Below the pieces are notes generated by a model that saw only the letters and a list, made by a program, of their open reading frames with translations, was not told where the DNA came from and searched no databases. From a virus, in the IMG/VR virus record IMGVR_UViG_3300049049_000112, positions 1 through 58,949 of that record: DNA of 58,949 nucleotides; one strand, written 5' to 3'. Positions 3,686-58,755 of this stretch are shown here, one piece after another (the first letter of the stretch is position 1; every line of letters begins with the position of its first letter). Position numbers and translations under genes: made by a program.

Positions 3686-3707
3686 GTAGTATCGCTCGTG
3701 CTATCCT
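3686..3707 (+). promoter_or_regulatory. Late-promoter-like box GTAGTATCG-N4-TGCTATCCT with no start codon behind it
   Basis: Near copy of 58374..58395; at the position where that copy has ATG this one reads AGT; faces the antisense side of the HNH gene. Confidence 0.5.
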
Positions 3708-3760
3708 GTGAGTAGTTTCTCTACTACCATCGGAGTAGCCTGTGAGCGAGTTGGACCAGA

Positions 3761-4285
3761 TCAGGTCAACGCTCTGGCCGGAGGGCTCAGCAGGTAGGCT
3801 TCGTACTGAGAGATCACTAACCCTGCGGGGCGCTGCGCGGCCTCGTACATGCCCAGTGCCCGGTTGCATGTAGAGCAAAGCAAGCCGCGTGCCTCTCCCG
3901 TCTGGTGGCAATGATCTGCCACCTCGCAGTACCGCCCCTGCCCGCCCACCTTCATGAACACGGCACATACGCAACATACGCCTCGCTGCACCTCTCTCAG
4001 TTTGGAGACAAGCGCGGCTGTGAAGCCTGTGGTCTTCTCTCGGGCGTAGGCCCGCCGGTAGGCTCTGTAGGCACTATCTTTTGCGTACCTCTCGCGGTGC
4101 CACCGACGCTGATAGTCGCGGCTCTTCTCCTTACCTTTGCCCGCGATGTAGGCCTTGTTCCGCTTCTTATCTCGCTCTCTCACCGCAGGGTCTGCTTGGT
4201 ACCGAATGCGCTGACGACACGTGCGGCAGTGGTGTTTGTAGACTCTCTTTCTACTACACCCCTCTGTCTGGCAGGGCTTGTCCAT
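3761..4285 (-). CDS. Endonuclease VII-type HNH homing endonuclease (paralog 1 of 3)
   Basis: ADHCHQTGEARGLLCSTCNRALG matches the DHxH-TG-x-RG-LC-x2-CN endo VII motif; opposite strand inside the late operon; ATG 4285 preferred over GTG 4300. Confidence 0.85.
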   Translation of the reverse strand: MDKPCQTEGCSRKRVYKHHCRTCRQRIRYQADPAVRERDKKRNKAYIAGKGKEKSRDYQRRWHRERYAKDSAYRAYRRAYAREKTTGFTAALVSKLREVQRGVCCVCAVFMKVGGQGRYCEVADHCHQTGEARGLLCSTCNRALGMYEAAQRPAGLVISQYEAYLLSPPARALT

Positions 4286-4290
4286 CTCGC

Positions 4291-4299
4291 ACACTAACA
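4291..4299 (-). promoter_or_regulatory. Extended -10 box TGTTAGTGT, 5 nt before ATG 4285 (leaderless)
   Basis: Minus strand reads tgttagtgt-gcgag-ATG. Confidence 0.5.
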
Positions 4300-4301
4300 C
4301 G

Positions 4302-4323
4302 GTAGTATCGTCCGTGCTAGCTT
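4302..4323 (+). promoter_or_regulatory. Late promoter box GTAGTATCG-N4-TGCTAGCTT upstream of the sheath gene
   Basis: Second copy of the 3686 box on the other side of the HNH gene; 35-nt leader with gagggg before ATG 4359. Confidence 0.55.
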
Positions 4324-4358
4324 GTGTATTGACTTTCTACTCCATTTTGAGGGGTCTC

Positions 4359-5678
4359 ATGAGTGAGTTGAGCGAAATCGTCAGCGTAAGTATCAGCGCG
4401 AACAGCGCTACTCCGAGCCGCCAAGGTTTCGGAACTCCTCTGCTTTTGAGCTACCACACCCGCTTTGCTGAGCGGTACCGTGTGTATGCTTCCACTGCGG
4501 AGATGGTGTCGGACGGCTTCACGACCTACGACGAAGCCTACCGCATGGCCGCTGCTGCGTTCGTGCAGGACCCGACTGTCGAGGAAGTCATCGTCGGGCG
4601 TCTGCCCAGCGCGCCGGCCTACTCAAAGGTGCTGACGATCACTACGGCTGTCGAGGGGCAGGTCATCAAGGCCACGGTCATCGAGCCCACAACCGGCACT
4701 GCTGTCGACCTGAGCTACACGGTCCTGGCTGCCGCAACGCTTACCACTGTTGCCACGGCGTTCGAGCTCTTGGTCGAAGCTGTGACCGGAGTGAACGCTG
4801 CGTCCAGCGTCGCAGACATCACCGTGACGCCCGCTGTCGCAGGGCGCCCCGTGCACATCTACGGCCTGCAGAACTGCACGATCGAAGAGAACACGGCGGA
4901 CGCTGGCTACGACACCGAGCTCGCAGCGCTGCAGCTCGAGAATGACGATTGGTACTTCGTCACGACCGACTCAGCCTCTCCGGCCAACGTGGCGGACGTA
5001 GCTGCCTGGGTACTCACGAACAAGAAGCTGTATTTCGTGGCGACCAACAGCTCGGGGGAGCTCGCGGGCACCGGTACGCTGGGCAGCGACCTCGAGGCAC
5101 TGAGCAACGATCGAACCGCCATCATCTACGCCAAGAACTCGCACGAGTACGCTGGCGTAGCGTGGGCTGCGAACGGCGCAGCGCAGACTCCGGGCAGCAT
5201 CACCTGGGCGTTCAAGACGCTTGCGGGCGTGACGGCGCAAGCGCTGACCAGCACCCAGCGCAACTTCCTCGAGGCCGACAACATCAACCACTACCAGACG
5301 GTAGCTGGGCTGTCGGTTACTCGCCAAGGCGTCACGACCGAGGGCGAGTTCATCGACATCCGGCACGGTATCGATGCGCTCGAGGCACGCGTGAAGGAGG
5401 ACGTCTTCGCTCTCATGGCGAACAGCTCGAAGGTGCCCTTCACGGCCTCCGGCCTGGACCTCGTGGCGAGCGCTATCCTCGGCGCCATGCGCGCCTTCGA
5501 GGGCACGGTAGAGTCGCCGGGGCTCATCGTGGCCGACACCTCGTACGCGATCATGCCCAACATCGCGGACATCTCCACCGCGGACAAGGCAGCTCGACGC
5601 TTGACGGGTGTACGCTTCGGTGGAACGCTCGCTGGGGCTATCCACTACGCCTCTTTGGTGGGCACGCTAACCGTTTAG
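4359..5678 (+). CDS. Tail sheath protein (DUF3383-like by recollection)
   Basis: 439 aa; N-terminus MSELSEIVSVSISANSATPSRQGFGTPLLL resembles the sheath family that pairs with DUF3277-type tubes; a tube gene follows. Confidence 0.7.
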   Translation: MSELSEIVSVSISANSATPSRQGFGTPLLLSYHTRFAERYRVYASTAEMVSDGFTTYDEAYRMAAAAFVQDPTVEEVIVGRLPSAPAYSKVLTITTAVEGQVIKATVIEPTTGTAVDLSYTVLAAATLTTVATAFELLVEAVTGVNAASSVADITVTPAVAGRPVHIYGLQNCTIEENTADAGYDTELAALQLENDDWYFVTTDSASPANVADVAAWVLTNKKLYFVATNSSGELAGTGTLGSDLEALSNDRTAIIYAKNSHEYAGVAWAANGAAQTPGSITWAFKTLAGVTAQALTSTQRNFLEADNINHYQTVAGLSVTRQGVTTEGEFIDIRHGIDALEARVKEDVFALMANSSKVPFTASGLDLVASAILGAMRAFEGTVESPGLIVADTSYAIMPNIADISTADKAARRLTGVRFGGTLAGAIHYASLVGTLTV

Positions 5679-6041
5679 CAGACGCTTCTTCTTTCTCTGG
5701 TTCTCTGACCACTTACGCTTGGCCTCCCTGCGCTTCTCCTGCAACTCAGGAGAAGCAGCTACCACAGCCCGTCTGGCCTCCTTTCTCGCCTGGTAGGCCT
5801 CCGGGTTCTGGGCTTTCCAGCGCGCCATGCAGTCTCTCTGAGACTGCAGCTTCCTCTCCCTGGCAACTGGGTCGCTCTCGTACTTCTTTTTGTCGGCCTT
5901 CCACTGGAGGCGATGGTCGTGCGCCGTCCGCTCTTTCTTGGCGTGGTTGAGGAGGTGCATGCTTTCAAAGCAGCCTCCGTCTACGCACACGCTCAGCCGG
6001 GAGAACGTCGCTTCGATCTCTTCGTGTAGGTCGGTGAACAT
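5667..6041 (-). CDS. Basic Arg/Lys-rich protein resembling the N-terminal regions of the endo VII paralogs but lacking the catalytic motif
   Basis: 124 aa; RERKLQSQRDCMARWKAQNPEAYQARKEARR repeats; TAGTGT box 6 nt before ATG 6041. Confidence 0.5.
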   Translation of the reverse strand: MFTDLHEEIEATFSRLSVCVDGGCFESMHLLNHAKKERTAHDHRLQWKADKKKYESDPVARERKLQSQRDCMARWKAQNPEAYQARKEARRAVVAASPELQEKRREAKRKWSENQRKKKRLLNG

Positions 6042-6058
6042 GTCCCGACACTACAGAA

Positions 6059-6298
6059 CTACTCACGGCGGCGCAACAGGATTCGCTCGTTCGCCAAGTA
6101 GGAAGTGAGCGCATTGATAGCGTCTTCGCTATTCGCGAATCCCGAAGTAGTCGCGCCGGCCAGGACGTACTCCCAGGTACCGTCGTCTTTGCGACGCACG
6201 ACGCCCGCGCGGCCGTCCGTCAGGTTCACCCAAGCCACGCCCGCCACGAGCCGAGAGGTCCAGAGCCAAGCCTGCGCTGTGTAGTACCGGTTGGCCAT
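6059..6298 (-). CDS. Hypothetical protein (79 aa), reverse-strand moron between sheath and tube
   Basis: Intact ORF with ATG 6298 placed 6 nt after a minus-strand TGGTACTCT box. Confidence 0.55.
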   Translation of the reverse strand: MANRYYTAQAWLWTSRLVAGVAWVNLTDGRAGVVRRKDDGTWEYVLAGATTSGFANSEDAINALTSYLANERILLRRRE

Positions 6299-6304
6299 GT
6301 ATCA

Positions 6305-6313
6305 AGAGTACCA
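6305..6313 (-). promoter_or_regulatory. Extended -10 box TGGTACTCT, 6 nt before ATG 6298 (leaderless)
   Basis: Minus strand reads tggtactct-tgatac-ATG; back to back with the plus-strand box at 6322. Confidence 0.5.
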
Positions 6314-6321
6314 CGGCCCTG

Positions 6322-6330
6322 TGCTACTCT
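6322..6330 (+). promoter_or_regulatory. Extended -10 box TGCTACTCT upstream of the tube gene
   Basis: 41-nt leader containing gaaagg before GTG 6372. Confidence 0.5.
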
Positions 6331-6371
6331 TGTAGTAGCCGCTACCCAGCTGTCGGCGAAAGGTACCCAAC

Positions 6372-6809
6372 GTGGCCGCTACTCCTCAGCTCACTATTTA
6401 TGACTTCGACCAAGTTACGGTCGCGCTTGGCCCGATTCTTATTGACGGCTTTCAGGAGGGCGAGGGCGTCACGCTCGAGGTCAAGGACACCTTCACGATG
6501 AAGGTCGGAGCAGACGGCAAAGTCACGCGCTCCAAGACGCTGGACCTCAGCGCCATCGTAACGATCACGGTCATGCAATCCTCGGCAGCGATGGACCTGT
6601 TGGGTGCCCTGCACTTGCTGGACCGCAACGCGCCCAACGGCGCTGGCGTCGTGCCGCTCTACATCCGCGACCGCGGCGGGCGCTCGGTCTACACCGGAGC
6701 CCAGGCCTGGATCGCGAAGGCCCCGGACATCACGTTCGGCAACGAAGCTACGCCCCGCGCATGGATTATTCATGTCGCCCGCCAGAACCGGATCGACGGC
6801 GGCAACTAA
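6372..6809 (+). CDS. Tail tube protein (DUF3277-like by recollection)
   Basis: 145 aa; position after the sheath gene; ILIDGFQEGEGVTLEVKDTFTMKVGADGKVTRS resembles this tube family. Confidence 0.7.
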   Translation: MAATPQLTIYDFDQVTVALGPILIDGFQEGEGVTLEVKDTFTMKVGADGKVTRSKTLDLSAIVTITVMQSSAAMDLLGALHLLDRNAPNGAGVVPLYIRDRGGRSVYTGAQAWIAKAPDITFGNEATPRAWIIHVARQNRIDGGN

Positions 6810-6863: not shown

Positions 6864-6954
6864 CGGAGCTTGCTCCGGAAAACTTCCGCAGGTTCGAATC
6901 CTGCAAGCCTTCGTGGCTTTGGTGTGAGAGGTTGAAACAGGCGGACAAGCCGCC
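6864..6954 (+). other. Run of four hairpins in a non-coding gap, one being a canonical tRNA T-arm sequence
   Basis: cggag-cttg-ctccg (6864-6877); gcagg-TTCGAAT-cctgc (6888-6904); aagcc-ttcgt-ggctt (6905-6919); ggcgg-acaag-ccgcc (6940-6954). I could not fold a full cloverleaf. Confidence 0.35.
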
Positions 6955-6994
6955 AGAGTTGGGCCTGAACAAAACTAAGGCTAACTCTGGCGGC

Positions 6995-7003
6995 TGCTAC
7001 TAT
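6995..7003 (+). promoter_or_regulatory. Extended -10 box TGCTACTAT, 5 nt before ATG 7009 (leaderless)
   Basis: tgctactat-caagg-ATG. Confidence 0.55.
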
Positions 7004-7008
7004 CAAGG

Positions 7009-7689
7009 ATGAAGATCCTACGCAGCCTCATGATTCACGGCGTGGGCGAACAGACCTCCAGCTTTGCTGAGGACGCCCGCTACAACCTGCGCAAGGGGCT
7101 CAGGGAAAAAGGCTGGCAGCTGCACTGCACTCAGGTGCACTGGGCGCCCCTCGCTGACCGCGTGCAGCGCAAGTTCCTGAAGTCCGTCGAGGCCAAGGGC
7201 AGCCGCGGCAACATGACGCAGAAGCTAGTAGTTGGTACGCTGGCGGACGCTCTCATGTACCGGTCCAGCCCCGAGCTGCAGCAGCAGATCTTCCACATCA
7301 TTGACCAGCAGATCTGGATGCTGGGCGAGCCTGTTACTATCTTCGCCCACTCGCTGGGCGGGCTCATCGCGACCGACTACCTACGCGCGCGGCCCAGCTG
7401 CAAGAACGTGAAGCTCGTTACGTTCGGCTGCAACATCGGGCTCTTCACGCTGGGCGCGAACTTCGACTGCCCGCAGCAGCTGCGTAGGCCGAACAGCTGG
7501 GTCAACCTCTACGCGAAGTCGGACATGCTGGGCTTCCCCGTGGCCGTAGACCCCGCCCTGAAGCACGTGCAAGACGTGCAAGTCTCAGTAGGCAGGTGGT
7601 GGCAGGGCTGGACCGGCCTGGCTCACGTTCGATACTGGGATACCGACCGGCTGTGGCGCCGTACCATTCCGAAGCTTTTGGGTATCTAG
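7009..7689 (+). CDS. Alpha/beta-hydrolase fold serine esterase/lipase-like protein
   Basis: 226 aa; IHGVG oxyanion-type motif near the N-terminus; nucleophile elbow AHSLGG (GxSxG); later Asp (KSDMLG) and His (LAHVRYW) candidates. Confidence 0.75.
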   Translation: MKILRSLMIHGVGEQTSSFAEDARYNLRKGLREKGWQLHCTQVHWAPLADRVQRKFLKSVEAKGSRGNMTQKLVVGTLADALMYRSSPELQQQIFHIIDQQIWMLGEPVTIFAHSLGGLIATDYLRARPSCKNVKLVTFGCNIGLFTLGANFDCPQQLRRPNSWVNLYAKSDMLGFPVAVDPALKHVQDVQVSVGRWWQGWTGLAHVRYWDTDRLWRRTIPKLLGI

Positions 7690-7690: not shown

Positions 7691-7699
7691 TGCTACTAT
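7691..7699 (+). promoter_or_regulatory. Extended -10 box TGCTACTAT, 7 nt before ATG 7707 (leaderless)
   Basis: tgctactat-cttactc-ATG. Confidence 0.55.
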
Positions 7700-7706
7700 C
7701 TTACTC

Positions 7707-8153
7707 ATGAGCCAGTTTCTCACCTGCGAATCCCGCACCATCGGCGGGAAAGAATATCAGATCAGGGTCTTGTCTGTGGGCGAGGGGGCCCGCAAGATCT
7801 ACCACCGCATCCAGCGCCTGCTGTCCATCGTGGGCGACAAGGAGAACCTCGCCGGCCTGGACCCAGTGTTCACCGCGATCATGGCAGGAGCGCTCTCGGA
7901 GGAGGACACCGACGCCCTGGTCAAGACGTTCGCCCCGACCACCACGGTCGACATGGGCGGAGACCCGCAGCGGACCGTGTCGCTGAAGGACCCCAAGGTT
8001 CAGGACGAGATCTTCTCTGCCAACCTCGAGGAGATGTTCGAGTGGCTGAGCGCCTGCGTCGAAGTGAACTTCGGGGGCGTCATTGCAAAAATGCGCGGCG
8101 CTCTGTCCAGCTTCGGCGACAAGGCGCAAACAAGCCAGCCGAAGGACAAGTAA
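7707..8153 (+). CDS. Tail assembly chaperone (G-like)
   Basis: 148 aa acidic protein directly upstream of the tape measure gene; ATG 7707 chosen over the longer track ORF (7596) because of the promoter box. Confidence 0.7.
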   Translation: MSQFLTCESRTIGGKEYQIRVLSVGEGARKIYHRIQRLLSIVGDKENLAGLDPVFTAIMAGALSEEDTDALVKTFAPTTTVDMGGDPQRTVSLKDPKVQDEIFSANLEEMFEWLSACVEVNFGGVIAKMRGALSSFGDKAQTSQPKDK

Positions 8154-8350: not shown

Positions 8351-10012
8351 GTGGTAGGCTTGTACGTGGCGATACTACGAGACGTTTTGGCGCGCTTTGC
8401 TGTCTCGGTGGACGACGCCCCGCTGTCCAAGCTGGACAAGCGAATCAATGTTGTCAAGGACAACATTGCCAAGATGGCCTCTATCGCCGGGGCGGGCTTC
8501 GCTGCTGTGGCGTACGGCGCCTACAAGGCAGTATCCGCCGCCAGCAACGCAGACGAGTCGCTGAACGTCCTGAGGCAGACGTTCAAGGGCAACAGCGACG
8601 CTGTTGTGCAGTGGAGCAAGACGATCGGCAAGGAGGTTGGGCGCTCGGAGTACACGCTCCAAGAAGCAGCCGGACGCTTCGGCTCGTTCTTGTCGCCTGT
8701 GTTCAAGGACTCCGGCGTCGACATCACGAAGATGTCGGAACGGCTGGCGGAGCTCGCTGTCGATCTTGGCAGCTTCTACAACACGTCGGACGAAGAAGCC
8801 GCTATGCGCCTCTTCTCGGGCATGTCTGGCGAGACGGAAGCTGTACGTCGACTGGGCATCGATATCAGCGATTCCAGCCTCAAAGACCTGCACAAGAAGA
8901 GTGGGGACAAGAGGGCGTACGAAAGCCTCGATCTCGCAACCAAGACGCAACTGCGCTTCACGAAGATTCTTGCGGACACCGTCGACAAGCAGGGCGACGC
9001 AGCGCGCACCGCAGGCGGCTGGGCGAACAGCGTCAAGCGCGTTCAGGAGCGCATCAAGACGCTGACCGTAGAGATCGGGCGCCGGCTCATGCCGACAGCC
9101 AAGAAGTTCCTGAACGCGCTCGAGCACACCGTTCTCTTCGTCGGTAAGGCTTACGACTTCATCACCCGCCAGACGCACTCTCTGGAGGTCGCGTTTGGCT
9201 TGGCTACGATAGCGCTTACTCGGTTCGCCTACGCCCAGGCTGCGCTGGTGGTGACGGCTCCCGGTTTCCTTGCCCAGCTGGTGGCCTACACAGGCGCAGC
9301 GCTCAAGAGCGCTGCAGCGTTCGCGAAACTGGCGCTGACGTTCCTGGTCATCGAGGACTTCATCGGCTTCTTGCGCGGGCACAAGAGCGTGTTCGGCGAC
9401 TTCTTGACCGAGGTCACCGGGCTCCAGAAGCCCCTCCAAGCTTTTGAAGACGTCATGGCAGATCTCGCCTCGCACTTCATGAACGTCATGACAGCCATAA
9501 AGAACATGGCCCTCTTCATTCCAAGAGTCAGCGCGGCGTTGATGCTAGGTAAGCCTTTGGGGGAGGCGGTGTCCGGAGCCAGCGACATGCGCCAGGACAT
9601 GGTCGACGTAGACAAGCACGCCCGCCAGCGCGACACCGATCGCAGGGCCGCGTTCCAGTCTGCTGTCGAGGCAGGCGACTACAAGGGCGCCATGCAGCAC
9701 AGTGACCCTCTCGAGACTAAGTCTGAGGCCAAGAGGCGCGCCCTCCAAACCCGAGTGGACTACGTCTCCGCGAACCCGGACAAGGCCACGGAGCAGGACT
9801 ACGCGACGGGCCTCGCTAGCTGGTCTGCTGCCAAGCCATCGATGCAGATGCAGCCTCAGAACATCTCGCCGGCAGCCAGTAAGAAAGCTCCTGTGGTCAT
9901 CCAGAGCGTCACGATCAACGGGGTGAAGAGCGCAGAGGAGGCCATCGATAGGCTTATGAGAGAGGCCGATTCGGCCGAGGCGCGCGGGGCGTACAAGGAG
10001 CTTACAGACTAA
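8351..10012 (+). CDS. Tail tape measure protein
   Basis: 553 aa; Ala/Gly-rich helical N-terminal half, hydrophobic central segments; canonical position after the chaperone pair; start GTG 8351 is uncertain. Confidence 0.85.
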   Translation: MVGLYVAILRDVLARFAVSVDDAPLSKLDKRINVVKDNIAKMASIAGAGFAAVAYGAYKAVSAASNADESLNVLRQTFKGNSDAVVQWSKTIGKEVGRSEYTLQEAAGRFGSFLSPVFKDSGVDITKMSERLAELAVDLGSFYNTSDEEAAMRLFSGMSGETEAVRRLGIDISDSSLKDLHKKSGDKRAYESLDLATKTQLRFTKILADTVDKQGDAARTAGGWANSVKRVQERIKTLTVEIGRRLMPTAKKFLNALEHTVLFVGKAYDFITRQTHSLEVAFGLATIALTRFAYAQAALVVTAPGFLAQLVAYTGAALKSAAAFAKLALTFLVIEDFIGFLRGHKSVFGDFLTEVTGLQKPLQAFEDVMADLASHFMNVMTAIKNMALFIPRVSAALMLGKPLGEAVSGASDMRQDMVDVDKHARQRDTDRRAAFQSAVEAGDYKGAMQHSDPLETKSEAKRRALQTRVDYVSANPDKATEQDYATGLASWSAAKPSMQMQPQNISPAASKKAPVVIQSVTINGVKSAEEAIDRLMREADSAEARGAYKELTD

Positions 10013-12005: not shown

Positions 12006-12014
12006 TGCTACCCT
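12006..12014 (+). promoter_or_regulatory. Extended -10 box TGCTACCCT, 6 nt before GTG 12021 (leaderless)
   Basis: tgctaccct-gagact-GTG. Confidence 0.55.
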
Positions 12015-12020
12015 GAGACT

Positions 12021-12671
12021 GTGGCTCGAGTACACGGCAACATCTCTCTCGCTCAGGTCATCGGCAACGCTGCCGACCGTCGAGCTAACGACTTGGCAGT
12101 GTCGCTGCCAGGCATCGTAGTCTCCTACAACCCGGCCACCGAAACCGCTACTATCAAGCCGGGCGTGAGTCGGCTCGTCCCTTCGGTAGAGGACCCAGAC
12201 GACGACGTAGTAGAGGAACTGCCGGCGATTCACGACGTGCCTGTCGCTTGGTACCGGGCGCGCGGTGTCTCCATCGTGCCGCCTGTGGGACTCACGCCGG
12301 GCGACCCCGTCACGCTGTTGTGCATGGACCGGGACATCTCTGCCTGGCTCCGCAGCGGGGCGCTCAGCGAGCCTGACGACGCTCGCAGTCACAGCTGGGC
12401 AAACGCCATAGCGATCCCCGGCCTGGTGCCGAGCTCGAACCCGTTCACCGCGCCGGTCGACGCGGCAGCGCTGGCCAGCAAGCTGGACGCAATATTTCAA
12501 GCCATCTCAGCGATCCCTCCAGTGCCTTCAGTGAGCCCGGCTGTCGATGGGGCCCCTGCTTTAGTGATCGCCAACGCTATTTTGACTGCCGTTCGAGCGG
12601 TCTACCTGACCGTGCCCCCGACTCCGAGTGTTGTCTCGTGCGCTTCCCAGATACTGAAGGTGGACCTGTAA
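12021..12671 (+). CDS. Baseplate central spike protein (gp138-N / gpV-like)
   Basis: 216 aa; LPGIVVSYNPATETATIKPG...LPAIHDVPVAW...PGDPVTLLCMDRDISAW fits the spike N-terminal domain pattern. Confidence 0.7.
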   Translation: MARVHGNISLAQVIGNAADRRANDLAVSLPGIVVSYNPATETATIKPGVSRLVPSVEDPDDDVVEELPAIHDVPVAWYRARGVSIVPPVGLTPGDPVTLLCMDRDISAWLRSGALSEPDDARSHSWANAIAIPGLVPSSNPFTAPVDAAALASKLDAIFQAISAIPPVPSVSPAVDGAPALVIANAILTAVRAVYLTVPPTPSVVSCASQILKVDL

Positions 12672-14995: not shown

Positions 14996-15000
14996 GAGAG

Positions 15001-45116: not shown

Positions 45117-45121
45117 ATTGC

Positions 45122-47723: not shown

Positions 47724-47728
47724 GCGGC

Positions 47729-49536: not shown

Positions 49537-49545
49537 TGCTACGAT
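49537..49545 (+). promoter_or_regulatory. Extended -10 box TGCTACGAT, 7 nt before ATG 49553 (leaderless)
   Basis: tgctacgat-gtaaagt-ATG. Confidence 0.45.
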
Positions 49546-49552
49546 GTAAAGT

Positions 49553-49725: not shown

Positions 49726-49977
49726 ATGAAGCAAACCGAAAAGACTGTGTACGTAGTAGTTGCGGGCGGAAAGTACGTGAGGATCCACGTAGGACACGGA
49801 GACAAGCTGCCGGAGCGATACGAGATCTTGCGCCCCGAAGACATCGAGTACGACGCTCGTCAGATTGCAACGACAGCTCGACCAAAGGTGAAGGTCAACA
49901 GAATCGCTGTTCTTGAGGTCCTCAAGGGAGGGCTGCACGCCAAGAAGAGCAAGCCCACCGCCCACAGCGTCGCGTAG
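49726..49977 (+). CDS. Hypothetical protein (83 aa)
   Basis: ATG 49726 after gagggga; MKQTEKTVYVVVAGGKYV... Confidence 0.5.
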   Translation: MKQTEKTVYVVVAGGKYVRIHVGHGDKLPERYEILRPEDIEYDARQIATTARPKVKVNRIAVLEVLKGGLHAKKSKPTAHSVA

Positions 49978-50792
49978 TGGCCCGCCGCACCCTCGCTGAA
50001 GCCTTCGCGGAGACGCGAGCCGCTCGCGCCCAGCGCGGAGACAGCGGGCGCCGAGTTGCGCGAGCCAAGCGGGAGGCCATGGCGCCGCGCCCGCCAGCGG
50101 CAGCCGTCACGGCCTACACGAGCGTCATGGAGACGTACGCCGAACGCGTAGAACGGCTCGTGGAGCGCAAGGTTCTGTCACGTCTGCCTATCCTGGGCTC
50201 CGGTGACACGCTGGACCTCGAGGGCGGGCTCCTCGAGCTGGAGGCAGAGCTCGACTCCCTGGCGGGGAAGGTCGGCCGCTCTGCGCTCGCTGCCGGCAAG
50301 CGGGTGTCGACGCACGGCCGCTCCGAAGTCGGCCGCATGATGAAAGTCAAGATGCCGCTGCCAGACCTCCGGACGAAGGCAGCCATAGACGCCTTCGCCG
50401 AGCGGAACATCGAGCTCGTACGCAAGGCAGGGCGGGCCCAGGTAGCGCGCATCCGCAAGGCGATAGCGGAGCACGAAGAGGGCGACTCGCTGCGCAGAGA
50501 CATCACGGACGCGCTCTGGGTCAGCCGCAACCGGGGTAAGATGATCGCCCGCGACCAGGCTTACAAGTTCCACGCCCAGACGATCGAGGAGTGGTCGCGG
50601 GCTGCGGGCTCGGAAGAATATCTGTGGGCGGCGCACAAGGACGAGCGGACGCGCCCCGGCCACGCTCGGCTGGACGGCACGAGGCACCGGTATGACAACC
50701 CGCCCAACACGGGGCGGCTCGAAGGCTTCAACCGTCCAGGTCAGGCCGCGAACTGCCGGTGCCGCATGGTCCCTGTCGAGGCACTCTACTAG
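49977..50792 (+). CDS. Head morphogenesis protein (Mu F / SPP1 gp7-like)
   Basis: 271 aa; TAGTG overlap start; DERTRPGHARLDGTRH...NCRCRMVPV C-terminal signature. Confidence 0.8.
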   Translation: MARRTLAEAFAETRAARAQRGDSGRRVARAKREAMAPRPPAAAVTAYTSVMETYAERVERLVERKVLSRLPILGSGDTLDLEGGLLELEAELDSLAGKVGRSALAAGKRVSTHGRSEVGRMMKVKMPLPDLRTKAAIDAFAERNIELVRKAGRAQVARIRKAIAEHEEGDSLRRDITDALWVSRNRGKMIARDQAYKFHAQTIEEWSRAAGSEEYLWAAHKDERTRPGHARLDGTRHRYDNPPNTGRLEGFNRPGQAANCRCRMVPVEALY

Positions 50793-50794: not shown

Positions 50795-50803
50795 TGCTAC
50801 CCT
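50795..50803 (+). promoter_or_regulatory. Extended -10 box TGCTACCCT, 6 nt before ATG 50810 (leaderless)
   Basis: tgctaccct-tgtagt-ATG. Confidence 0.55.
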
Positions 50804-50809
50804 TGTAGT

Positions 50810-51805
50810 ATGAAGTGCACTATCGATCGCGCTGGCGTCCTGAGCAACTCGCGCCGCACGGCTACCGGGGGCTACCTAGTCGACGCCACGCTGGCCAAGG
50901 TTGGGGTGATGCTCTACGCCGACGAGAGCGGCAAGCCGGTCCGGCACTACAACCCGCCCGAGGTCCTGCAGTCTGCGCTCGACGGCTTGGCCACGGCACC
51001 TGTTACGAATCGTCACCCGGCGCAGTTCGTGAGCCCCGAAACGTATCAGAAGGTGGCCGCAGGGCACGTGGTGGGCACGGCCGCGTTCGAGGACGGGCAC
51101 GTCAAGGCGACGCTGGCGATCAACGATGCCGCGCTCATCCGCGACATCGAGCTCGGGGTCTGCCGCGAAGTCAGCATGGGCTACATGGTCGACACGGCAC
51201 CGGCAGAGGTAGCCGACGAGTACGACGTAGTCCGCACCAAGATCGAGTGGAATCACGTCGCGATAGTACCGAGCGGCCGAGCCGGCAAGTCCGTCCGACT
51301 GCTGCTAGATTCAAACGAGATACCCAACCAAGACGAGGTAAAAGTGGCACTGAAGATCAATGGCGCCGAAGTGGCGGATGACAAGGCACAGGCGGCGATT
51401 GACTCTCTCGAGGGCCAGCTCGTGGCGGTCTCGAAGGAACGCGATGCGCTGAAGGCAGCGAAGGACGCGGCGGACGCAGCGCTGGCGAAAGCCACGAGCG
51501 ACGAGGCGATCGACGCTGCTGTGGCGGAGAGACTTGACCGCGAGGCCAAGGCCAAGGCGCGGCAGGATAAGCTGGACCGCGTCAAGGCGGGCTACCCCGA
51601 CGTGGCAGTCGACGGCAAGTCCGACGACTACATTGACGCTCTGGACGTCGCGCTCGCGAAGCTGAAGGCCGCGGACCCCGACGGCCTCAAGCAGATCAAG
51701 AACGACAGCCCAGGCGGCAAGAACGAGCAGACGGACGCTGCGCCGGTACTCAGCGCGCGAGAGCAGATGCTGGCCCGCCAGCGTAAGCCGCTCCTCCAGG
51801 CGTAG
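50810..51805 (+). CDS. Prohead protease/scaffold-like protein (DUF2213-like) with Ala/Lys/Asp coiled-coil tail
   Basis: 331 aa; RRTATGGYLVDATLAKVGVMLY...APVTNRHP...EVSMGYMVD pattern; C-terminal scaffold-like helix. Confidence 0.7.
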   Translation: MKCTIDRAGVLSNSRRTATGGYLVDATLAKVGVMLYADESGKPVRHYNPPEVLQSALDGLATAPVTNRHPAQFVSPETYQKVAAGHVVGTAAFEDGHVKATLAINDAALIRDIELGVCREVSMGYMVDTAPAEVADEYDVVRTKIEWNHVAIVPSGRAGKSVRLLLDSNEIPNQDEVKVALKINGAEVADDKAQAAIDSLEGQLVAVSKERDALKAAKDAADAALAKATSDEAIDAAVAERLDREAKAKARQDKLDRVKAGYPDVAVDGKSDDYIDALDVALAKLKAADPDGLKQIKNDSPGGKNEQTDAAPVLSAREQMLARQRKPLLQA

Positions 51806-51823
51806 TATCGGCCGTGCTACGCT
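51802..51823 (+). promoter_or_regulatory. Late promoter box GTAGTATCG-N4-TGCTACGCT
   Basis: Overlaps the upstream TAG; 87-nt leader with gaagga before ATG 51911. Confidence 0.5.
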
Positions 51824-51910
51824 AGTGTCAAGCGCCACTATCGGCGCGAGTTGGCGCCCCGGCTGCGAGAGCAGTGTTACGGCTACGGGCCAAAGAAGGA
51901 CACTACCCAG

Positions 51911-52816
51911 ATGGCACTACAGAGTTCATATTCCCAGGCCCCTTCTTTGGCGCTGCTCGGTCAACTGACCGACGCATTCTCGCCGCAGGGCTGCTCGGCC
52001 AAGGTCGCGCGCGGCATGGTCAAGGCTGGCTACGGCGTGTTCAAGGTGAACACGGTTGGCGGCTCGGGCGGCGGCGCCTCGGGCACCAGCATGCTGGCTC
52101 CTGGCTCCGTGCTGCAGACTCCGAGCCCCGCGCTCACGGTCGACGTGGACGCCATCGGCAGCGTCGCCTCGAGCGGCAGCATTCAGACCCTGACGACTTT
52201 CAACGGTGTCGTGGGCCTCACCGAGATGCAGCCCGCTCGTCAGGTGACTTTCACCTGCGACGCGTCTACGGACTGGGATGCCACCAACGTCACGCTGACC
52301 GGCGTGAATCACCTCGGTCAGACCGTGAGCGAGACTCTCGCCATCGCAACGTCGACCACGGCCACCAGCGTGAACCGCTACCGCTCGGTGACGAGCGTCG
52401 TGATTCCCGTGCAGACCGGCGCAGGCGGCACCGGGACGATCGGTATCTCTGCCGTGACCGCGCTCACGATCGCTGACTTCCGCGGCGTCGCGGTCCGTCA
52501 GGAGACCAAGACCACCAACTCCACCGCTGGCCTCTACGGCTACCCCGGCCTGACGGCTGCGCAACTCGCGGTGACCGCGGACTACGTGGACGGCGAGTCG
52601 GTGCCCTGCTTGTACTCGGGCGGTATCTGGTGCTTCACCGAAGAGGCTGTGTCGGATGGTGACCCCGTGTACGTCCGTATCGCTGCCGGCGCTGGCGGCT
52701 CCGCTCTCGGCGCGTTCCGAAACGACGCCGACACCGCGAGCTGCGTGCTCGTAGTAGGCGCCCGCTTCACGGCGGACTGCGCGGCTGGCCTCGGGCGCCT
52801 ACGTCTGACATACTAA
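51911..52816 (+). CDS. Head decoration-like structural protein
   Basis: 301 aa between the scaffold and major capsid genes; termini (VKAGYGVFKV ... GDPVYVRIAAG) resemble DUF2190-type decoration proteins with an insert. Confidence 0.5.
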   Translation: MALQSSYSQAPSLALLGQLTDAFSPQGCSAKVARGMVKAGYGVFKVNTVGGSGGGASGTSMLAPGSVLQTPSPALTVDVDAIGSVASSGSIQTLTTFNGVVGLTEMQPARQVTFTCDASTDWDATNVTLTGVNHLGQTVSETLAIATSTTATSVNRYRSVTSVVIPVQTGAGGTGTIGISAVTALTIADFRGVAVRQETKTTNSTAGLYGYPGLTAAQLAVTADYVDGESVPCLYSGGIWCFTEEAVSDGDPVYVRIAAGAGGSALGAFRNDADTASCVLVVGARFTADCAAGLGRLRLTY

Positions 52817-52927: not shown

Positions 52928-52936
52928 TGCTACTCT
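52928..52936 (+). promoter_or_regulatory. Extended -10 box TGCTACTCT upstream of the major capsid gene
   Basis: 55-nt leader containing the gtcgc-cgg-gcgac hairpin. Confidence 0.5.
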
Positions 52937-52991
52937 CAAGGTAGTAAAGCCGCGGCGTAGTCGCCGGGCGACGAAAGGGTCCCGGCAGCAT

Positions 52992-53984
52992 ATGAAAATA
53001 GTATTCGACGCAGAAGTCCTCGCGGCAGTCCCCGATCTGGCGAGCGTCTCAGACGAAGTCAAGCGCGCGGCGCTAGCTCACGGCGTCAAGGACGCGAGCG
53101 AGACTCTCGTCTTTGCCCGCCAGCTGGAACACATCAAGAACCGTCTTTACAAGAAGGTGTACGCAGAGCTCAAGGGCCGGCAGTTCGTGCCCATGTCGAA
53201 CGAGGCAGGCCCGAACAAGGAGTTCGTGACCTACCGCGTGTGGACCGGTGTGACGATGGCCAAGCTCGTCACCAACTACTCCACGGACTTCGAGACCGTG
53301 ACCGCGATGGCCGAAGAGCAGTTCCTGAAGTTCCATGACTTCGGTAACGCCTACGAGTTCAGCATGCGCGACCTGCAGCTGGCTGCGGCGGCTGGCGTGC
53401 AGCTGCAGAGCATGAAGGCCGAGCTCGCTCGAGACGGCCACGAGCTCGCCATCGACGAAGCGATCGCCATCGGCGTGCCGCAGGTGAAGACCTACGGTCT
53501 CACCAACCACCCGAACATCCCGCTCCTGTCGCTGACCACGGGCAACTGGCCCGCGTCGACCGGCATTCAGATCCTCGCTGATATGGAGTCGATCATCACG
53601 CAAATGGAGAACACGACCCTCGAGATTCACCGTCCGAACGTGATTCTCATGTCGACGCTCGCTCGTCGACTGATCGCGACCAAGCCGTACGACAGCGCCT
53701 CGGGCGCCCTTACGGTCCTCCAGGTCTTCCAGGCGCGCAACCCCGGCGTCCGTGTGGAGTCCTGGACCAAGCTGGCCACCTCGGCAGCGAGCGGCACCAC
53801 GGGCCGCATCATCGCCTACAAGTACGACCCCACGATTCTCGAGTTCGAGGTAGGCGAGGAGTTCCATGCCTACCCCGCGTTCCAGAAGGGCATGAGCCTC
53901 GTTACTCCCTGCATGAGTCGCTTCGCTGGTGTGGTCATCCACCAACCGTTGGCTATTTCACACTTTGACAATCAACTCATTTGA
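52992..53984 (+). CDS. Major capsid protein (HK97-fold, DUF2184-like)
   Basis: 330 aa from ATG 52992; FARQLEHIKNRLYKKVYAELKGRQFVP...YEFSMRDLQLAAAAG pattern. Confidence 0.8.
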   Translation: MKIVFDAEVLAAVPDLASVSDEVKRAALAHGVKDASETLVFARQLEHIKNRLYKKVYAELKGRQFVPMSNEAGPNKEFVTYRVWTGVTMAKLVTNYSTDFETVTAMAEEQFLKFHDFGNAYEFSMRDLQLAAAAGVQLQSMKAELARDGHELAIDEAIAIGVPQVKTYGLTNHPNIPLLSLTTGNWPASTGIQILADMESIITQMENTTLEIHRPNVILMSTLARRLIATKPYDSASGALTVLQVFQARNPGVRVESWTKLATSAASGTTGRIIAYKYDPTILEFEVGEEFHAYPAFQKGMSLVTPCMSRFAGVVIHQPLAISHFDNQLI

Positions 53985-53992
53985 CAGTACCT

Positions 53993-54001
53993 TGCTACCA
54001 T
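53993..54001 (+). promoter_or_regulatory. Extended -10 box TGCTACCAT at the start of HNH paralog 2
   Basis: Overlaps ATG 54000; the second in-frame ATG 54006 lies 4 nt after the box. Confidence 0.4.
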
Positions 54002-54662
54002 GCGAATGGTAGCTGTCTGTCAGGGAACCGAAAAACACAAAGGCTGCGGCGAAGTGAAAACACTCAACGCCCGCAGCCTTTGTGGTGCTTGTTACGCAAA
54101 GCACCAAGCCAAAGGCTGGCTGGAACCCTCCCGGCAGAGGGTGCGCAAAGAAGGGCAAAAACAATGCAGCCAGTGCCCTTCCCCTGTCTACGGACGCGGT
54201 TTGTGTAGAGCTTGCTACAAGAAAGAGTACGTCGCGCCCACGAAGCCGTGCAAGGCTTGCGGGGAGAGTAAACCCACTCAAGGGCACGGCATGTGCCAGC
54301 GCTGCTACATGCAGAGCAACTCTCCCCAGTACAACAAGAACCGTAGGACAGCGTTCGGTTCGCTCTGCGACGAGGACAAGGAAAAACTGAGGGCGCACCA
54401 GCGCCGCTATCGACGAACCCGTCTGTACGGGCTGAGCCCTCAGGACCAGCGAGCAATGCTTGAAGGGCAGAACAACACCTGCGCGATCTGCCCTCACGAG
54501 TTCAGCGACGGGTCTTATCACGTCGACCACTGCCACAAAACAGGCAAGGTGCGCGGGCTACTGTGCCAGAAGTGCAACCGAGGCCTCGGTCACTTCAACG
54601 ACGAGACGCTCAGGCTGGAGCGAGCCAAGGCGTATCTCGAAGCGCACAACCAGCTCATCTAA
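54000..54662 (+). CDS. Endonuclease VII-type HNH homing endonuclease (paralog 2 of 3)
   Basis: VDHCHKTGKVRGLLCQKCNRGLG; several CxxC pairs in the N-terminal half; inserted after the major capsid gene. Confidence 0.85.
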   Translation: MRMVAVCQGTEKHKGCGEVKTLNARSLCGACYAKHQAKGWLEPSRQRVRKEGQKQCSQCPSPVYGRGLCRACYKKEYVAPTKPCKACGESKPTQGHGMCQRCYMQSNSPQYNKNRRTAFGSLCDEDKEKLRAHQRRYRRTRLYGLSPQDQRAMLEGQNNTCAICPHEFSDGSYHVDHCHKTGKVRGLLCQKCNRGLGHFNDETLRLERAKAYLEAHNQLI

Positions 54663-56000: not shown

Positions 56001-56009
56001 TGCTATCCT
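56001..56009 (+). promoter_or_regulatory. Extended -10 box TGCTATCCT, 5 nt before ATG 56015 (leaderless)
   Basis: tgctatcct-gaggg-ATG. Confidence 0.55.
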
Positions 56010-56014
56010 GAGGG

Positions 56015-56371
56015 ATGGCCGACATAGTCAGCAACGCGACCTTCCTCGAAGCGCACCCGGAGTTCTCCGGCGCCACGGAAGCGCTGGTGACCAACGCGAT
56101 AGCACGCGCCGCGCGCAGGACGAACGCGACGGTCTACCAGAGCGCAGAGCTCGCTGCCGACGCGGTCATTCTCCGCGCTGCCGTTATACTTGTGCTCAGC
56201 CCTTACGGGCGGAAGATGCGCAGCGAGAGCCCGGAGCAGGTGCTGGCCTGGGAGTATCAGCTCCGGCAGCTGCAGCGCCAGGCTACCACTGGGCTGCGTG
56301 TGTTCGTCTCCCTTCTGGGGTTGCTAACGGTGAGTAAGTTGCTACTATTCGTAGTGTGCGCAGCTGCCTAA
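56015..56371 (+). CDS. Head-tail connector/adaptor (DUF4054-like) with an odd hydrophobic C-terminal extension
   Basis: FLEAHPEFSGATEALVTNAIARAARR...AAD pattern; the last ~25 codons run through the promoter box and start of HNH paralog 3. Confidence 0.65.
   Translation: MADIVSNATFLEAHPEFSGATEALVTNAIARAARRTNATVYQSAELAADAVILRAAVILVLSPYGRKMRSESPEQVLAWEYQLRQLQRQATTGLRVFVSLLGLLTVSKLLLFVVCAAA
56340..56348 (+). promoter_or_regulatory. Extended -10 box TGCTACTAT, 7 nt before GTG 56356 (leaderless)
   Basis: tgctactat-tcgtagt-GTG. Confidence 0.5.
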
Positions 56372-56919
56372 CTCCCGATTGCCCAAGAGACGCAGAGCGT
56401 AAAGGGCGCTGCAGACCGTGCAGCAATGCACGTCGTAGAGCGCTCTACGTTCCGGGCAGTACAAGCACACAGCGTAAAGAGTACAGAAGCAGGAACCTCG
56501 AGCGCATACGCGCCTACGATCGTGCTCGAGGTAGCCACTCAACACCAGAGAAAGCCAGGATGTACTCAAAAGTGAGTAGGCTGAAGCCGAAAAACCTGGA
56601 GGCCGAGACGCAGAGGCAGCGGAGACGAAGAGCGGGGTTCTACGACGGCTTGGCGGATGCTTGTCGGGAGCTACAGAAGGGCGTGTGCGCCATGCCGGGG
56701 TGCGGGCAGATCCTGACGAAAACAGGAAACCGCGGCAAGCACGGAGAGTGCGCGGATCACGATCACGATACGGGGAAAGCGCGCGGCTTGCTCTGCAAGC
56801 GGTGCAACGTGCAGCTCGGAGCGTGGGAGATCCTAGAGAAAAACAACGCAGCGCGGGAGTACATACGAAACACTCCGGTGATGCAGGTGGAAGCCCAGAT
56901 GCAGCACAAGGCCAGCTAG
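56356..56919 (+). CDS. Endonuclease VII-type HNH homing endonuclease (paralog 3 of 3)
   Basis: ADHDHDTGKARGLLCKRCNVQLG; N-terminal CxxDC/CxxC pairs. Confidence 0.85.
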   Translation: MRSCLTPDCPRDAERKGRCRPCSNARRRALYVPGSTSTQRKEYRSRNLERIRAYDRARGSHSTPEKARMYSKVSRLKPKNLEAETQRQRRRRAGFYDGLADACRELQKGVCAMPGCGQILTKTGNRGKHGECADHDHDTGKARGLLCKRCNVQLGAWEILEKNNAAREYIRNTPVMQVEAQMQHKAS

Positions 56920-57434: not shown

Positions 57435-57712
57435 TGGACGGCCCCGAGCTAAAAGGGCTACCGCAGCCCCCGGACAAGCCCAAGCGACACGGACCCAAGC
57501 TGCCGCGTAGTCGCGGGCGCAGCGCAGTAGGGAAACTGAGTAAGCGCAGCGGCTTCCGTGCTTTTGGCAAGAGGAGGAAGAGCGGGCTCCTCAAGTTCAT
57601 AGTGAAGCTGATCAAGAAGGCTGCGCGCACCAAGCGCTCCAGCGACTTCAGGAACAGGGGCTTCACAAACAGCGGGCGCGGCGGACGCACAGGGTTCGCG
57701 GGCATGCGGTAG
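57434..57712 (+). CDS. Extremely basic small protein (92 aa)
   Basis: GTG 57434 (TAGTG overlap); about 28 Lys/Arg versus 4 Asp/Glu by my count; GC-rich third positions. Confidence 0.45.
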   Translation: MDGPELKGLPQPPDKPKRHGPKLPRSRGRSAVGKLSKRSGFRAFGKRRKSGLLKFIVKLIKKAARTKRSSDFRNRGFTNSGRGGRTGFAGMR

Positions 57713-57717
57713 TGCAG

Positions 57718-57726
57718 TGCTACTCT
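57718..57726 (+). promoter_or_regulatory. Extended -10 box TGCTACTCT, 5 nt before GTG 57732 (leaderless)
   Basis: tgctactct-agagg-GTG. Confidence 0.55.
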
Positions 57727-57731
57727 AGAGG

Positions 57732-58373
57732 GTGACTTGGGCAACTACAAAAGAGGCGTGTCGGCTCGCCATCGCTGCCGCTCTTGACCTGGACGACTAC
57801 ACCGGGGCGGACGGCGTAGTCGGCGGCATTCACAAAGTAGAATGGGCGAACAAGCAAAAGGCTGTTCGCTACCTGAACAACGACAGCGCCTGGGCGGACC
57901 TGCGGATGGGGGCAATCGTAGCCCAGGGCACAGACGAGATCCGTTACGAGTACGTGGCCGGCGCGACGGCAGCGCTCAGCCGCAACGTGCCGACCTACGC
58001 AGGCAGGCGCTTGTTCTCGGTGCAGGTTCTGATCGGCGTGGAGTCGCAGGAGGACGCCGAGGAGGCCGTAGGCACGCTGGCGGGCAGGCTCCGCACTCGC
58101 CTACGTCGAGTCGAGATCCTGGCCATCCTGCAAGACGCAGGCGTGGCCTTGCGCAGCATCGGCCCTACCGTGGACGCCGACTACCGGAACAGGGACGGGC
58201 ACTGGGTCTCGGCCTCGATCACGGAGATCTTCCTAGCCCGCACCGAGCAGGACACGGACGAAGACAACGCGGGCGACTTCATCACCGAGACCTCGGGCAC
58301 GAGCGAGCTCACCCGGACAGACGGCACGACAGCCGAAGGGGACTTCGAGGTCGTCTATGTGGAGCCGCAGTAG
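57732..58373 (+). CDS. Putative neck/tail-terminator protein
   Basis: 213 aa; assigned by position after the gp10-like gene; no diagnostic motif recognised. Confidence 0.45.
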   Translation: MTWATTKEACRLAIAAALDLDDYTGADGVVGGIHKVEWANKQKAVRYLNNDSAWADLRMGAIVAQGTDEIRYEYVAGATAALSRNVPTYAGRRLFSVQVLIGVESQEDAEEAVGTLAGRLRTRLRRVEILAILQDAGVALRSIGPTVDADYRNRDGHWVSASITEIFLARTEQDTDEDNAGDFITETSGTSELTRTDGTTAEGDFEVVYVEPQ

Positions 58374-58395
58374 GTAGTATCGCCCGTGCTATCCT
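58374..58395 (+). promoter_or_regulatory. Late promoter box GTAGTATCG-N4-TGCTATCCT, 6 nt before ATG 58402 (leaderless)
   Basis: gtagtatcgcccgtgctatcct-gggagt-ATG. Confidence 0.6.
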
Positions 58396-58401
58396 GGGAG
58401 T

Positions 58402-58755
58402 ATGAGTGACGCCCCGGTAAAGATTGACCAGCTCGGCGCACGGATGGCTGCCGTTACTACCGGCACGCAAGAGTCGATCGACTTGACGACGCTGGGGCGT
58501 CGATGGATCAAGGTCTGGGCGGACCAGGACTTCTACTACTTCATGGCGCCCGGTTCGAGCGTGGTGACGTACGCCATGGACACGGCAGCGGCGGACAAGG
58601 CGCTCGGCTCGCTCATTCCGTTCGAGTGCGCCAGCGGCGCTGCGGGGCAGCCCGTTCTCGTGGACCCGAAATACCCTTGGCTGCACGTCAAGGCGAAGAC
58701 GGCCACAGCGCAGATTCAGATCAAGACGACGTCTGACGCGCAGAGCGACGAGTAA
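58402..58755 (+). CDS. Hypothetical virion-module protein (117 aa)
   Basis: Intact ORF with a leaderless-type start. Confidence 0.55.
   Translation: MSDAPVKIDQLGARMAAVTTGTQESIDLTTLGRRWIKVWADQDFYYFMAPGSSVVTYAMDTAAADKALGSLIPFECASGAAGQPVLVDPKYPWLHVKAKTATAQIQIKTTSDAQSDE

Follow-up and report, generated by a model that had tools for sequence, protein, structure and literature searches.

Extended -10 boxes next to start codons in one half of an uncultivated phage genome, and the leaderless mRNAs they probably produce

How does a phage express genes whose start codons stand only a few nucleotides (nt) behind a promoter-like box, with no Shine-Dalgarno (SD) sequence in front of them? The question is raised by the viral record IMGVR_UViG_3300049049_000112, of which we have analysed a stretch of 58,949 bp (the window), a tailed-phage genome of 61% G+C. 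An earlier inspection of the letters, here called the sequence-only reading, had listed 15 places where a nonamer of the form TGnTAnnnT is followed 4-7 nt later by a start codon, and had proposed a largely leaderless late regulon. All 15 lie where they were listed, each a box followed by ATG or GTG; the spacing is in fact 5-7 nt at every one, a gap of 4 nt arising only if 53993 is paired with 54006, and the match to the nonamer stands everywhere except at 45108 (GGCTACACT), where the G of -14 is present and the T of -15 is missing. Three sites had escaped the list: 8352 before GTG 8366, 6048-6056 on the minus strand before ATG 6041, and 53965-53993 before ATG 54000. We count 23 boxes in the window, 18 of them ending 5-7 nt before a start codon and five having leaders of 35-87 nt or more. 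As argued below, they are probably extended -10 promoters, devoid of a -35 element, for the primary sigma-70 of the host, and would give leaderless mRNAs at those 18 genes.

Over the whole genome the loose pattern TGNTANNNT shows no enrichment (46 matches vs 39 expected). The signal resides in where the matches are placed: 24 of the 46 are non-coding, while non-coding DNA makes up 13.7% of the window (binomial p = 6e-10). The narrower TGCTA[CT]NNT has a density 21.5 times higher outside coding sequence (17 non-coding matches vs 5 coding; p = 3e-11); an equal frequency in coding and non-coding DNA, which had been named beforehand as evidence against the proposal, is thus not seen. The description of the sites as mostly TGCTAYYYT was overstated, this form having 11 matches (1.65 expected; none of 100 shuffles reaches 11) and TGCTAYNNT 22, of which 17 are non-coding. 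When the start codon is included, TGNTANNNT-N4-7-RTG is seen 18 times, versus 4.25 +/- 2.0 and a maximum of 10 in 300 dinucleotide shuffles. The distance from TANNNT to the start codon has a sharp peak at 5-7 nt, which comprises 12 of 70 window genes; in six relatives, for which independent database gene calls were used, TANNNT lies 5-7 nt before 36 of 189 starts vs about one per other distance bin. The canonical scan for promoters and terminators found no enrichment.

Alignment of the 23 boxes shows T-12, A-11 and T-7 to be invariant, with 2.4 bits each, and T-15 and G-14 to be nearly so. The TGn extension is present in 20 boxes, the exceptions being 45108 (G-14 only) and two boxes that lack it, 6048-6056 on the minus strand and 53985-53993. 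C is favoured at -13 and -10, position -10 being C or T, and pyrimidines are found at -9 and -8. The information at -35 is about 0-0.4 bit; the statement that no -35 hexamer stands at a fixed distance is thus true of the TG boxes but not of every leaderless gene, for ATG 54000 has TTGACA-N17. On both strands the boxes are oriented with their own genes, many of them in the mere 12-33 nt that separate a gene from the stop codon of its predecessor, and one inside the gene before.

The packaging module has at its first gene the box GGCTACACT, 5 nt before ATG 45122 (45108-45124). Further along the plus strand come the portal ATG 47729, with TGGTAGTAT at 5 nt (47715-47731); a 54-aa open reading frame (ORF) at ATG 49553, with TGCTACGAT at 7 nt (49537-49555); and the Pa193_gp24-like head protease/scaffold gene at ATG 50810, with TGCTACCCT at 6 nt (50795-50812). 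The Endonuclease_7 gene 54000-54662 has a full promoter, TTGACA-N17-TACCTT, 6 nt before its ATG (53965-54002), overlapping a TGCTACCAT box at 53993-54001. Beyond it, TGCTATCCT precedes ATG 56015 by 5 nt (56001-56017), TGCTACTAT precedes GTG 56356 of another Endonuclease_7 gene, 56356-56919, by 7 nt (56340-56358, inside the 3' end of gene 56015-56371), TGCTACTCT precedes GTG 57732 by 5 nt (57718-57734) and TGCTATCCT precedes ATG 58402 by 6 nt (58387-58404), with the 9-mer GTAGTATCG upstream at 58374. Among the tail genes at the other end of the window, TGCTACTAT lies 5 nt before ATG 7009 of gene 7009-7689 (6995-7011; the first start codon of this ORF) and again 7 nt before ATG 7707 of the tail assembly chaperone gene 7707-8153 (7691-7709); TGGTAGGCT lies 5 nt before GTG 8366 of the tape measure gene, which extends to 10012 (8352-8368); TGCTACCCT lies 6 nt before GTG 12021 of a baseplate gene, 12021-12671 (12006-12023); TGCTACCTT lies 6 nt before ATG 13176 of the baseplate wedge gene 13176-14351 (13161-13178); and TGCTACTCT lies 5 nt before ATG 15001 of gene 15001-15939 (14987-15003). 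Three sites are on the minus strand: TGTTAGTGT, 5 nt before ATG 4285 of the Endonuclease_7 gene 3761-4285 (4283-4299); TGGTACTCT, 6 nt before ATG 6298 of a 79-aa gene (6296-6313) and back to back with the plus-strand box at 6322, 8 nt away; and CTGTAGTGT, without TGn, 6 nt before ATG 6041 of gene 5667-6041 (6039-6056). That homing endonucleases and reverse-strand genes use the box, as had been claimed, holds for three Endonuclease_7 genes and for the reverse-strand genes.

The start codons at the 18 sites are 14 ATG, four GTG and no TTG, which matches a preference for a purine at the start. None of them has an AGGAGG-derived 4-mer or longer at a spacing of 3-15 nt, and many genes of the replication module do have one. 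The starts themselves appear well placed: 12 of the 18 have no earlier start available in their ORF, 42 of 54 sites across the clade have no upstream in-frame alternative, an in-frame stop codon often lies within the box itself, and alignments of orthologous proteins begin at residue 1. At 5-7 nt from the box, the purine of the start codon is at the position where a sigma-70 polymerase starts, from which we infer that transcription would begin there and that the genes abutted by a box most likely give leaderless mRNAs. The coexistence of leaderless and SD-led genes in one genome, also part of the sequence-only reading, is supported as far as sequence analysis goes.

To see whether the boxes are kept in evolution, one can turn to the portal-centred loci of seven metagenomic relatives with 45-72% portal identity (L001, L002, L004, L006, L028-L031). 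A box with the proper 5-7 nt spacing precedes the portal start in five of six relatives, and in the sixth (L028) a TGCTA box abuts the ATG; the box of the protease/scaffold gene is kept in six of six, one of which has its database start mis-called downstream of TGCTACCTT-GAGGGC-ATG. The boxes of window genes 56015, 57732 and 58402 are kept in five of five, four of five and two of two relatives, respectively, and the leadered box of the capsid gene retains TGCTA and the final T in seven of seven genomes. The N positions and the 5-7 nt that separate box and start drift, as seen at the portal with TGGTAGTAT, TGCTACCCT, TGGTAAGAT and GCTAAGCT. Such retention at orthologous sites spans 40-70% protein identity; L006, which has 45% portal identity, carries eight such sites in 18 kb, and a prophage of 33% identity in a Polyangia metagenome-assembled genome (MAG) has none. 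This evidence bears on the thought that composition or gene calling could have created the pattern, through AT-richer intergenic DNA, TAG stop codons and biased start calls. TANNNT overall is indeed 2.8 times denser in non-coding DNA, some of the GTAG motifs found upstream of boxes are stop codons, and the loose pattern lacks enrichment; but the distance peak, the shuffled controls, the forced start codons and the conservation among orthologs effectively refute such an artefact, which we find scarcely credible.

The same box also stands farther from some genes, as had been claimed for the sheath, tube, decoration and major capsid genes, whose leaders measure 35, 41, 87 and 55 nt. The sheath gene (DUF3383) has TGCTAGCTT and a 35-nt leader with the SD GAGGGG before ATG 4359 (4315-4361); the tube-like, KPP10_Orf10-like structural gene has TGCTACTCT and 41 nt before GTG 6372 (6322-6374); the cement/decoration gene has TGCTACGCT and 87 nt, with the SD GAAGGA, before ATG 51911 (51815-51913); the major capsid gene has TGCTACTCT and 55 nt before ATG 52992 (52928-52994). 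A fifth box of this group, TGCTATCCT in a composite with GTAGTATCGCTCG at 3686-3707 on the plus strand, has no adjacent start codon and repeats the cassette of 4302-4323 beyond the reverse-strand endonuclease gene. In the capsid leader the SD (AAAGG) sits in the loop of a CCGGG...CCCGG hairpin, 52965-52991, just 5' of the ATG; the same layout was seen by eye in the leaders of six relatives (L002, L004, L028-L031), and an automatic consensus fold of the capsid leaders predicted no pairs, the alignment being too poor. The box works also with long, SD-bearing leaders and is thus not a translation signal bound to the start codon.

All 23 boxes belong to the structural, packaging and endonuclease modules and none to the replication module, so that the division implied by the term late regulon is real; its timing is judged from gene function only. 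The contrasting module, with the integrase and replication genes (17396-38116, minus strand), has mostly SD sequences of AGGAG type and promoters of the form TTGAC-N17-TAGnnT. On the structural side, nearly all genes that begin at least 12 nt from their upstream neighbour have a box at 5-7 nt, or a box with leader and SD, or, at 15953, an SD alone; the sole exception to this rule, 12684, has an uncertain start. Where a structural-side gene has neither box nor SD, it overlaps the stop codon of its upstream neighbour or directly adjoins it, in keeping with translational coupling. TTGAC-N17-20-TANNNT is found at nine sites vs 2.05 expected, mainly before replication and early genes, and the -10 hexamers of these early promoters (TAGTCT, TAGTGT, TACTCT) are of the same flavour as the late boxes.

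The second promoter class reaches into the leaderless genes as well. Across the clade, TTGAC peaks 34-37 nt before starts (14 genes of 260; background about 0.3 per bin), a distance that equals 6 + 16-18 + 6 + 5-7 nt and thus resolves into a -35 hexamer, a spacer, a -10 hexamer and the gap to the start codon. TG is absent from all 14 of these TTGAC-bearing leaderless promoters, several of which have weaker -10 hexamers; the example in the window is TTGACA-N17-TACCTT-N6-ATG 54000. In primary-sigma holoenzymes the -35 element and the extended -10 are known to compensate each other, and the trade-off between TG and -35 looks like that expected of a sigma-70-type polymerase.

Might the box instead act on RNA, within long polycistronic late transcripts, either as a processing site at which an endonuclease leaves 5'-AUG ends or as a translation enhancer unrelated to the SD? 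The many boxes in gaps of 12-33 nt after a stop codon, the one within a preceding gene and the lack of terminator enrichment between units would suit this idea. Against it, the conserved positions coincide exactly with those that sigma regions 2.4 and 3.0 recognise, and the bases between and downstream of them drift; the relatives show -35 hexamers at the canonical spacing of 16-18 nt where TG is absent, a compensation that an RNA-level signal is not expected to produce; the box is also found 35-87 nt upstream of SD-led genes; and it is not complementary to the anti-SD. We consider an RNA-level role highly improbable.

If the boxes are extended -10 promoters, their use would proceed as follows. 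The host holoenzyme would bind T-15 G-14 n T-12 A-11 n n n T-7 without a -35 element and initiate on the A or G of ATG or GTG, 6-8 nt downstream of the box, and the 5'-terminal start codon would then be translated without an SD. Downstream genes with overlapping or abutting stop and start codons would be translated by coupling, and five genes, either displaced or highly expressed (sheath, tube, cement, capsid), would use the same box with a leader of 35-87 nt carrying an SD. The structural, packaging and lysis region of about 31 kb would in this way be cut into about 20 short transcription units, while the replication and early modules would rely on classical -35/-10 promoters and SD-led mRNAs.

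This interpretation has to be weighed against several observations. The phage carries an integrase, and some 23 promoters that appear independent of any activator and precede late genes would need to be silenced in a lysogen; we found no mechanism that would silence them. The box is more uniform (C-13, C/T-10, pyrimidines at -9/-8) than a housekeeping -10 needs, and the upstream GTAG (10 of 23 boxes vs a background of 13.6%), together with GTAGTATCG before four boxes, hints at an extra factor. When the trade-off between -35 and TG is tested on TANNNT sites alone, it is only marginal (p = 0.04-0.08).

Several of these points recur in an alternative that we regard as rather unlikely, namely that the box is a -10-like element needing a phage factor (an activator of late genes, a protein that remodels sigma and abolishes -35 recognition in the manner of gp39 of Thermus phage P23-45, or a late sigma that has diverged). 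The mRNAs would still be leaderless, and the regulon would be specific to the phage instead of being simply constitutive in the host. The need to keep about 23 late boxes off in the lysogen of a temperate, integrase-bearing phage, the extra conservation at -13 and from -10 to -8 and the accessory elements GTAG and GTAGTATCG upstream of many boxes speak for such a factor, as do the many small ORFs without a detectable family and the resemblance of the split between early/replication -35/-10 promoters and structural extended -10 promoters to that of P23-45 (PMC7403470). The first leaderless packaging gene is directly preceded by ORF 44698-45066 (122 aa), which is conserved in L002. Its match to the CopG-like ribbon-helix-helix family is weak, with E = 4e-4, and does not reach the Pfam cut-off; we list the ORF as a candidate regulator. 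On the other side, no phage RNA polymerase or sigma domain (RNA_pol, Sigma70) was present in about 67 distinct proteins scanned, most of them by Pfam, a smaller subset by PHROGs and four by PDB sequence search. Nor did Pfam, PHROGs or PDB sequence searches return a sigma, an anti-sigma or a gp39-like RNA-polymerase-binding protein, the last belonging to a kind of small protein rarely detectable by sequence. Early-region ORFs are poorly conserved in the relatives that keep the boxes, and no early-region protein conserved across the relatives emerged as a candidate late regulator. Moreover, the presence of TG suggests recognition by a sigma that has region 3, a property of primary sigma factors, and -35-bearing leaderless promoters coexist in the same modules. 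A bolder version, to which we attach still less weight, holds that an undescribed phage late-transcription factor (sigma-remodeller, activator or repressor) would read the TGCTAC core plus GTAG or GTAGTATCG and jointly switch on about 20 leaderless late units, in a clade that may infect a lineage outside Actinomycetota and Deinococcota.

The surroundings of the boxes deserve a description of their own. GTAG lies within 22 nt upstream of the 10 boxes mentioned, and its combination with the box as a fixed-spacing operator was rejected, the spacing ranging from 0 to 13 nt. Six copies of GTAGTATCG occur, within 3686-3707 and 4302-4323, at 51802, 55344 and 58374 and, on the minus strand, at 8378; in four cases it stands exactly 4 nt before a TGCTA box, forming four exact GTAGTATCGNNCGTGCTA composites. 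Two of these cassettes, 3686-3707 and 4302-4323, flank the reverse-strand Endonuclease_7 gene 3761-4285, and it looks as if insertion of the homing endonuclease duplicated, or carried in, the sheath promoter. Pairs of opposite-strand boxes stand back to back at 6305-6330 and 4291-4323, 8 and 15 nt apart, as imperfect inverted repeats (AGAGTACCA-N8-TGCTACTCT); they are predicted to be compact divergent promoters for a reverse-strand gene and a structural gene. The box at 6995 is abutted by a hairpin (6950-6994) that has 12 bp in its stem (GCCGCCAGAGTT...AACTCTGGCGGC) but lacks a T tract; it could be a factor-independent terminator of the kind found in high-GC bacteria, parting two units.

How do the proposed extended -10 promoters compare with known systems? 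The late promoters of T4 type (gp55, TATAAATA), T7 and N4 are also -10-only or single-block elements repeated before late genes, with leadered mRNAs, and they need a phage sigma factor or RNA polymerase; we detected neither in this phage, and the motif, its TG extension included, obeys the rules of a primary sigma. Closer parallels come from Thermus phages. In P23-45 the protein gp39 is a sigma-4 blocker that disables -35 recognition and shifts the polymerase to extended -10 promoters, and most middle and late transcripts of phiYS40 are leaderless, as Sevostyanova and colleagues reportedly described in 2007. P23-45 has -35/-10 early promoters and extended -10 middle and late promoters without a -35 (PMC7403470), while a similar TGnTA-type motif is attributed to the leaderless genes of phiYS40 in the mention made of it in PMC4842269. 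The likeness lies in a -35/-10 early class and a later extended -10 class, the two classes being split between early and late modules as in the P23-45 switch, and probably in the use of host RNA polymerase. The Thermus phages are, however, unrelated and lytic, whereas the window phage carries an integrase, has no gp39 homolog that we could find and has boxes with a GC-rich interior (TACYCT) instead of an AT-rich one.

Among cellular genes, experiments in Deinococcus radiodurans have established a -10 motif next to ORFs as the promoter of leaderless genes; its activity depends on the spacing and rises when a -35 stands 17 bp upstream (PMC12340547). Leaderless genes of Deinococcus-Thermus and Actinobacteria share TANNNT a few bp before the start; they differ in belonging to cellular genomes, whereas here the arrangement is confined to one functional half of a phage genome and nearly always has the TG extension. 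Leaderless mRNAs of Bradyrhizobium japonicum have an extended -10 TGnTA upstream (PMC4842269), and Caulobacter crescentus, of a genus rich in leaderless mRNAs, has 385 of them (PMC8459731). The RpoD consensus of Caulobacter (-35 TTGaCgS, -10 GCtANAWC; PMC8144410) shares GCTA and TTGACG with the boxes and -35 elements described here; unlike the boxes, in which the final T is invariant, its -10 consensus ends in C, and 4.4% of Caulobacter leaderless mRNAs are non-AUG, vs four GTG in 18 here. Mycobacteria, too, can start leaderless translation at GUG (PMC8459731, PMC4633059). The architecture is thus known but uncommon, and what is new is its presence in this uncultivated clade and its unusually high density.

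The earlier hint that the host belongs to Actinomycetota or Deinococcota may still prove right but finds no support, since Alphaproteobacteria share the architecture (PMC4842269, PMC8459731) and the few taxonomic clues favour Gram-negative hosts. An actinobacterial or Deinococcus-type host would agree with the density of leaderless genes, the GTG leaderless starts and the hairpins without T tracts. On the contrary side, the remote portal matches are all to phages of Proteobacteria, although the collection has many actinophages; the structural Pfam families derive from the Pseudomonas phages E217, Pa193 and KPP10; the endolysin is a one-domain amidase of 199 aa; and one relative encodes SspB. 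The sole taxonomically labelled contig of the clade, from two scans of genome collections, is a 'Pseudomonadota bacterium' MAG, with distant matches in Polyangia and Phycisphaerales. Searches for integrase and amidase homologs led to a single label, that of a 'Polyangiaceae' MAG, which belonged to another phage. The search for a spanin or lipoprotein as a Gram-negative marker found only the lipoprotein gene 34672-35151, which is not decisive.

That lipoprotein gene belongs to the side of the genome with -35/-10 promoters, where the palindrome CTACGATCGTAG is found at 23693-23704, 35172-35183 and 43877-43888, perfect in two copies and with one mismatch in the third. Each of the three lies inside the spacer of a TTGAC-N17-TAGnnT promoter, and these promoters precede the PolA operon, the lipoprotein gene (34672-35151, minus strand) and a winged-helix gene (43920-44348). 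When as many as two mismatches are allowed, 12 matches appear where 1.9 would be expected, and the majority fall within genes. The three copies embedded in promoters resemble repressor operators of early or middle promoters. The lipoprotein has 159 aa and begins MTFNKAVGLVLLLVGC..., with a clear lipoprotein signal peptide, and on account of its operator-bearing promoter it may serve in superinfection exclusion. A lipobox (LLLAC) also results if the M10-like peptidase gene beside the amidase gene (16130-16654, plus strand) is read from an internal start. In three relatives, small early genes (L002 60-2420, L028 100-3000, L030 600-2400) share a near-identical CA-rich leader, e.g., CACACAAAAGGAGCACACA-ATG, a repeated translation-initiation cassette that could hardly be less like the leaderless late genes.

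The gene map of this tailed phage is as follows. Packaging and head genes occupy 45-54 kb, with the large terminase (46033-47523), portal (47729-49255), MuF-like (49977-50792), Pa193_gp24-like protease/scaffold (50810-51805), cement (51911-52816) and capsid (52992-53984) genes. Connector and tail genes run from 54.7 kb via the window end to 17 kb and include the sheath (4359-5678), tube-like (6372-6809), chaperone (7707-8153) and tape measure (8366-10012) genes, the baseplate genes at 10-15 kb and the amidase gene (16651-17250). The integrase gene (17396-18571) and the replication module, with ligase, PolA, helicase, exonuclease and primase-helicase, fill the minus strand to 38.1 kb, and 38-45 kb holds a block of small genes of lower GC. 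Scattered in the genome are three Endonuclease_7 genes and one NUMOD3 gene. The window has no tRNA genes and no Rfam families. A GGTTCGATCC motif at 17257 was rejected as a tRNA end, since it belongs to CCGG hairpins; in L029, ARAGORN calls an atypical 90-nt tRNA-like gene of unassigned anticodon at 17832-17921, directly 5' of a TGCTACCCT box.

Megablast of the region 45-59 kb against phages returned no match, and in tblastn with the portal the best match to a known phage has 27% identity, so that by sequence the window has no known relative among phages. The portal has at least 137 metagenomic homologs, many of them on contigs of about 60 kb; the clade, a new phage group, has no cultured member. 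No new principle is revealed by its promoters, and their interest lies elsewhere. They provide a clean comparative case of a phage genome divided between two modes of expression, raise the question of how a temperate phage silences so many promoters that look independent of activators, and flag correct start codons for annotation, some of which database gene callers miss. With nine specified bases and 5-7 nt, the box is also a compact module of promoter plus translation initiation for high-GC hosts. If the host does lie outside Actinomycetota and Deinococcota, this clade would extend heavy reliance on leaderless genes to another group of hosts.

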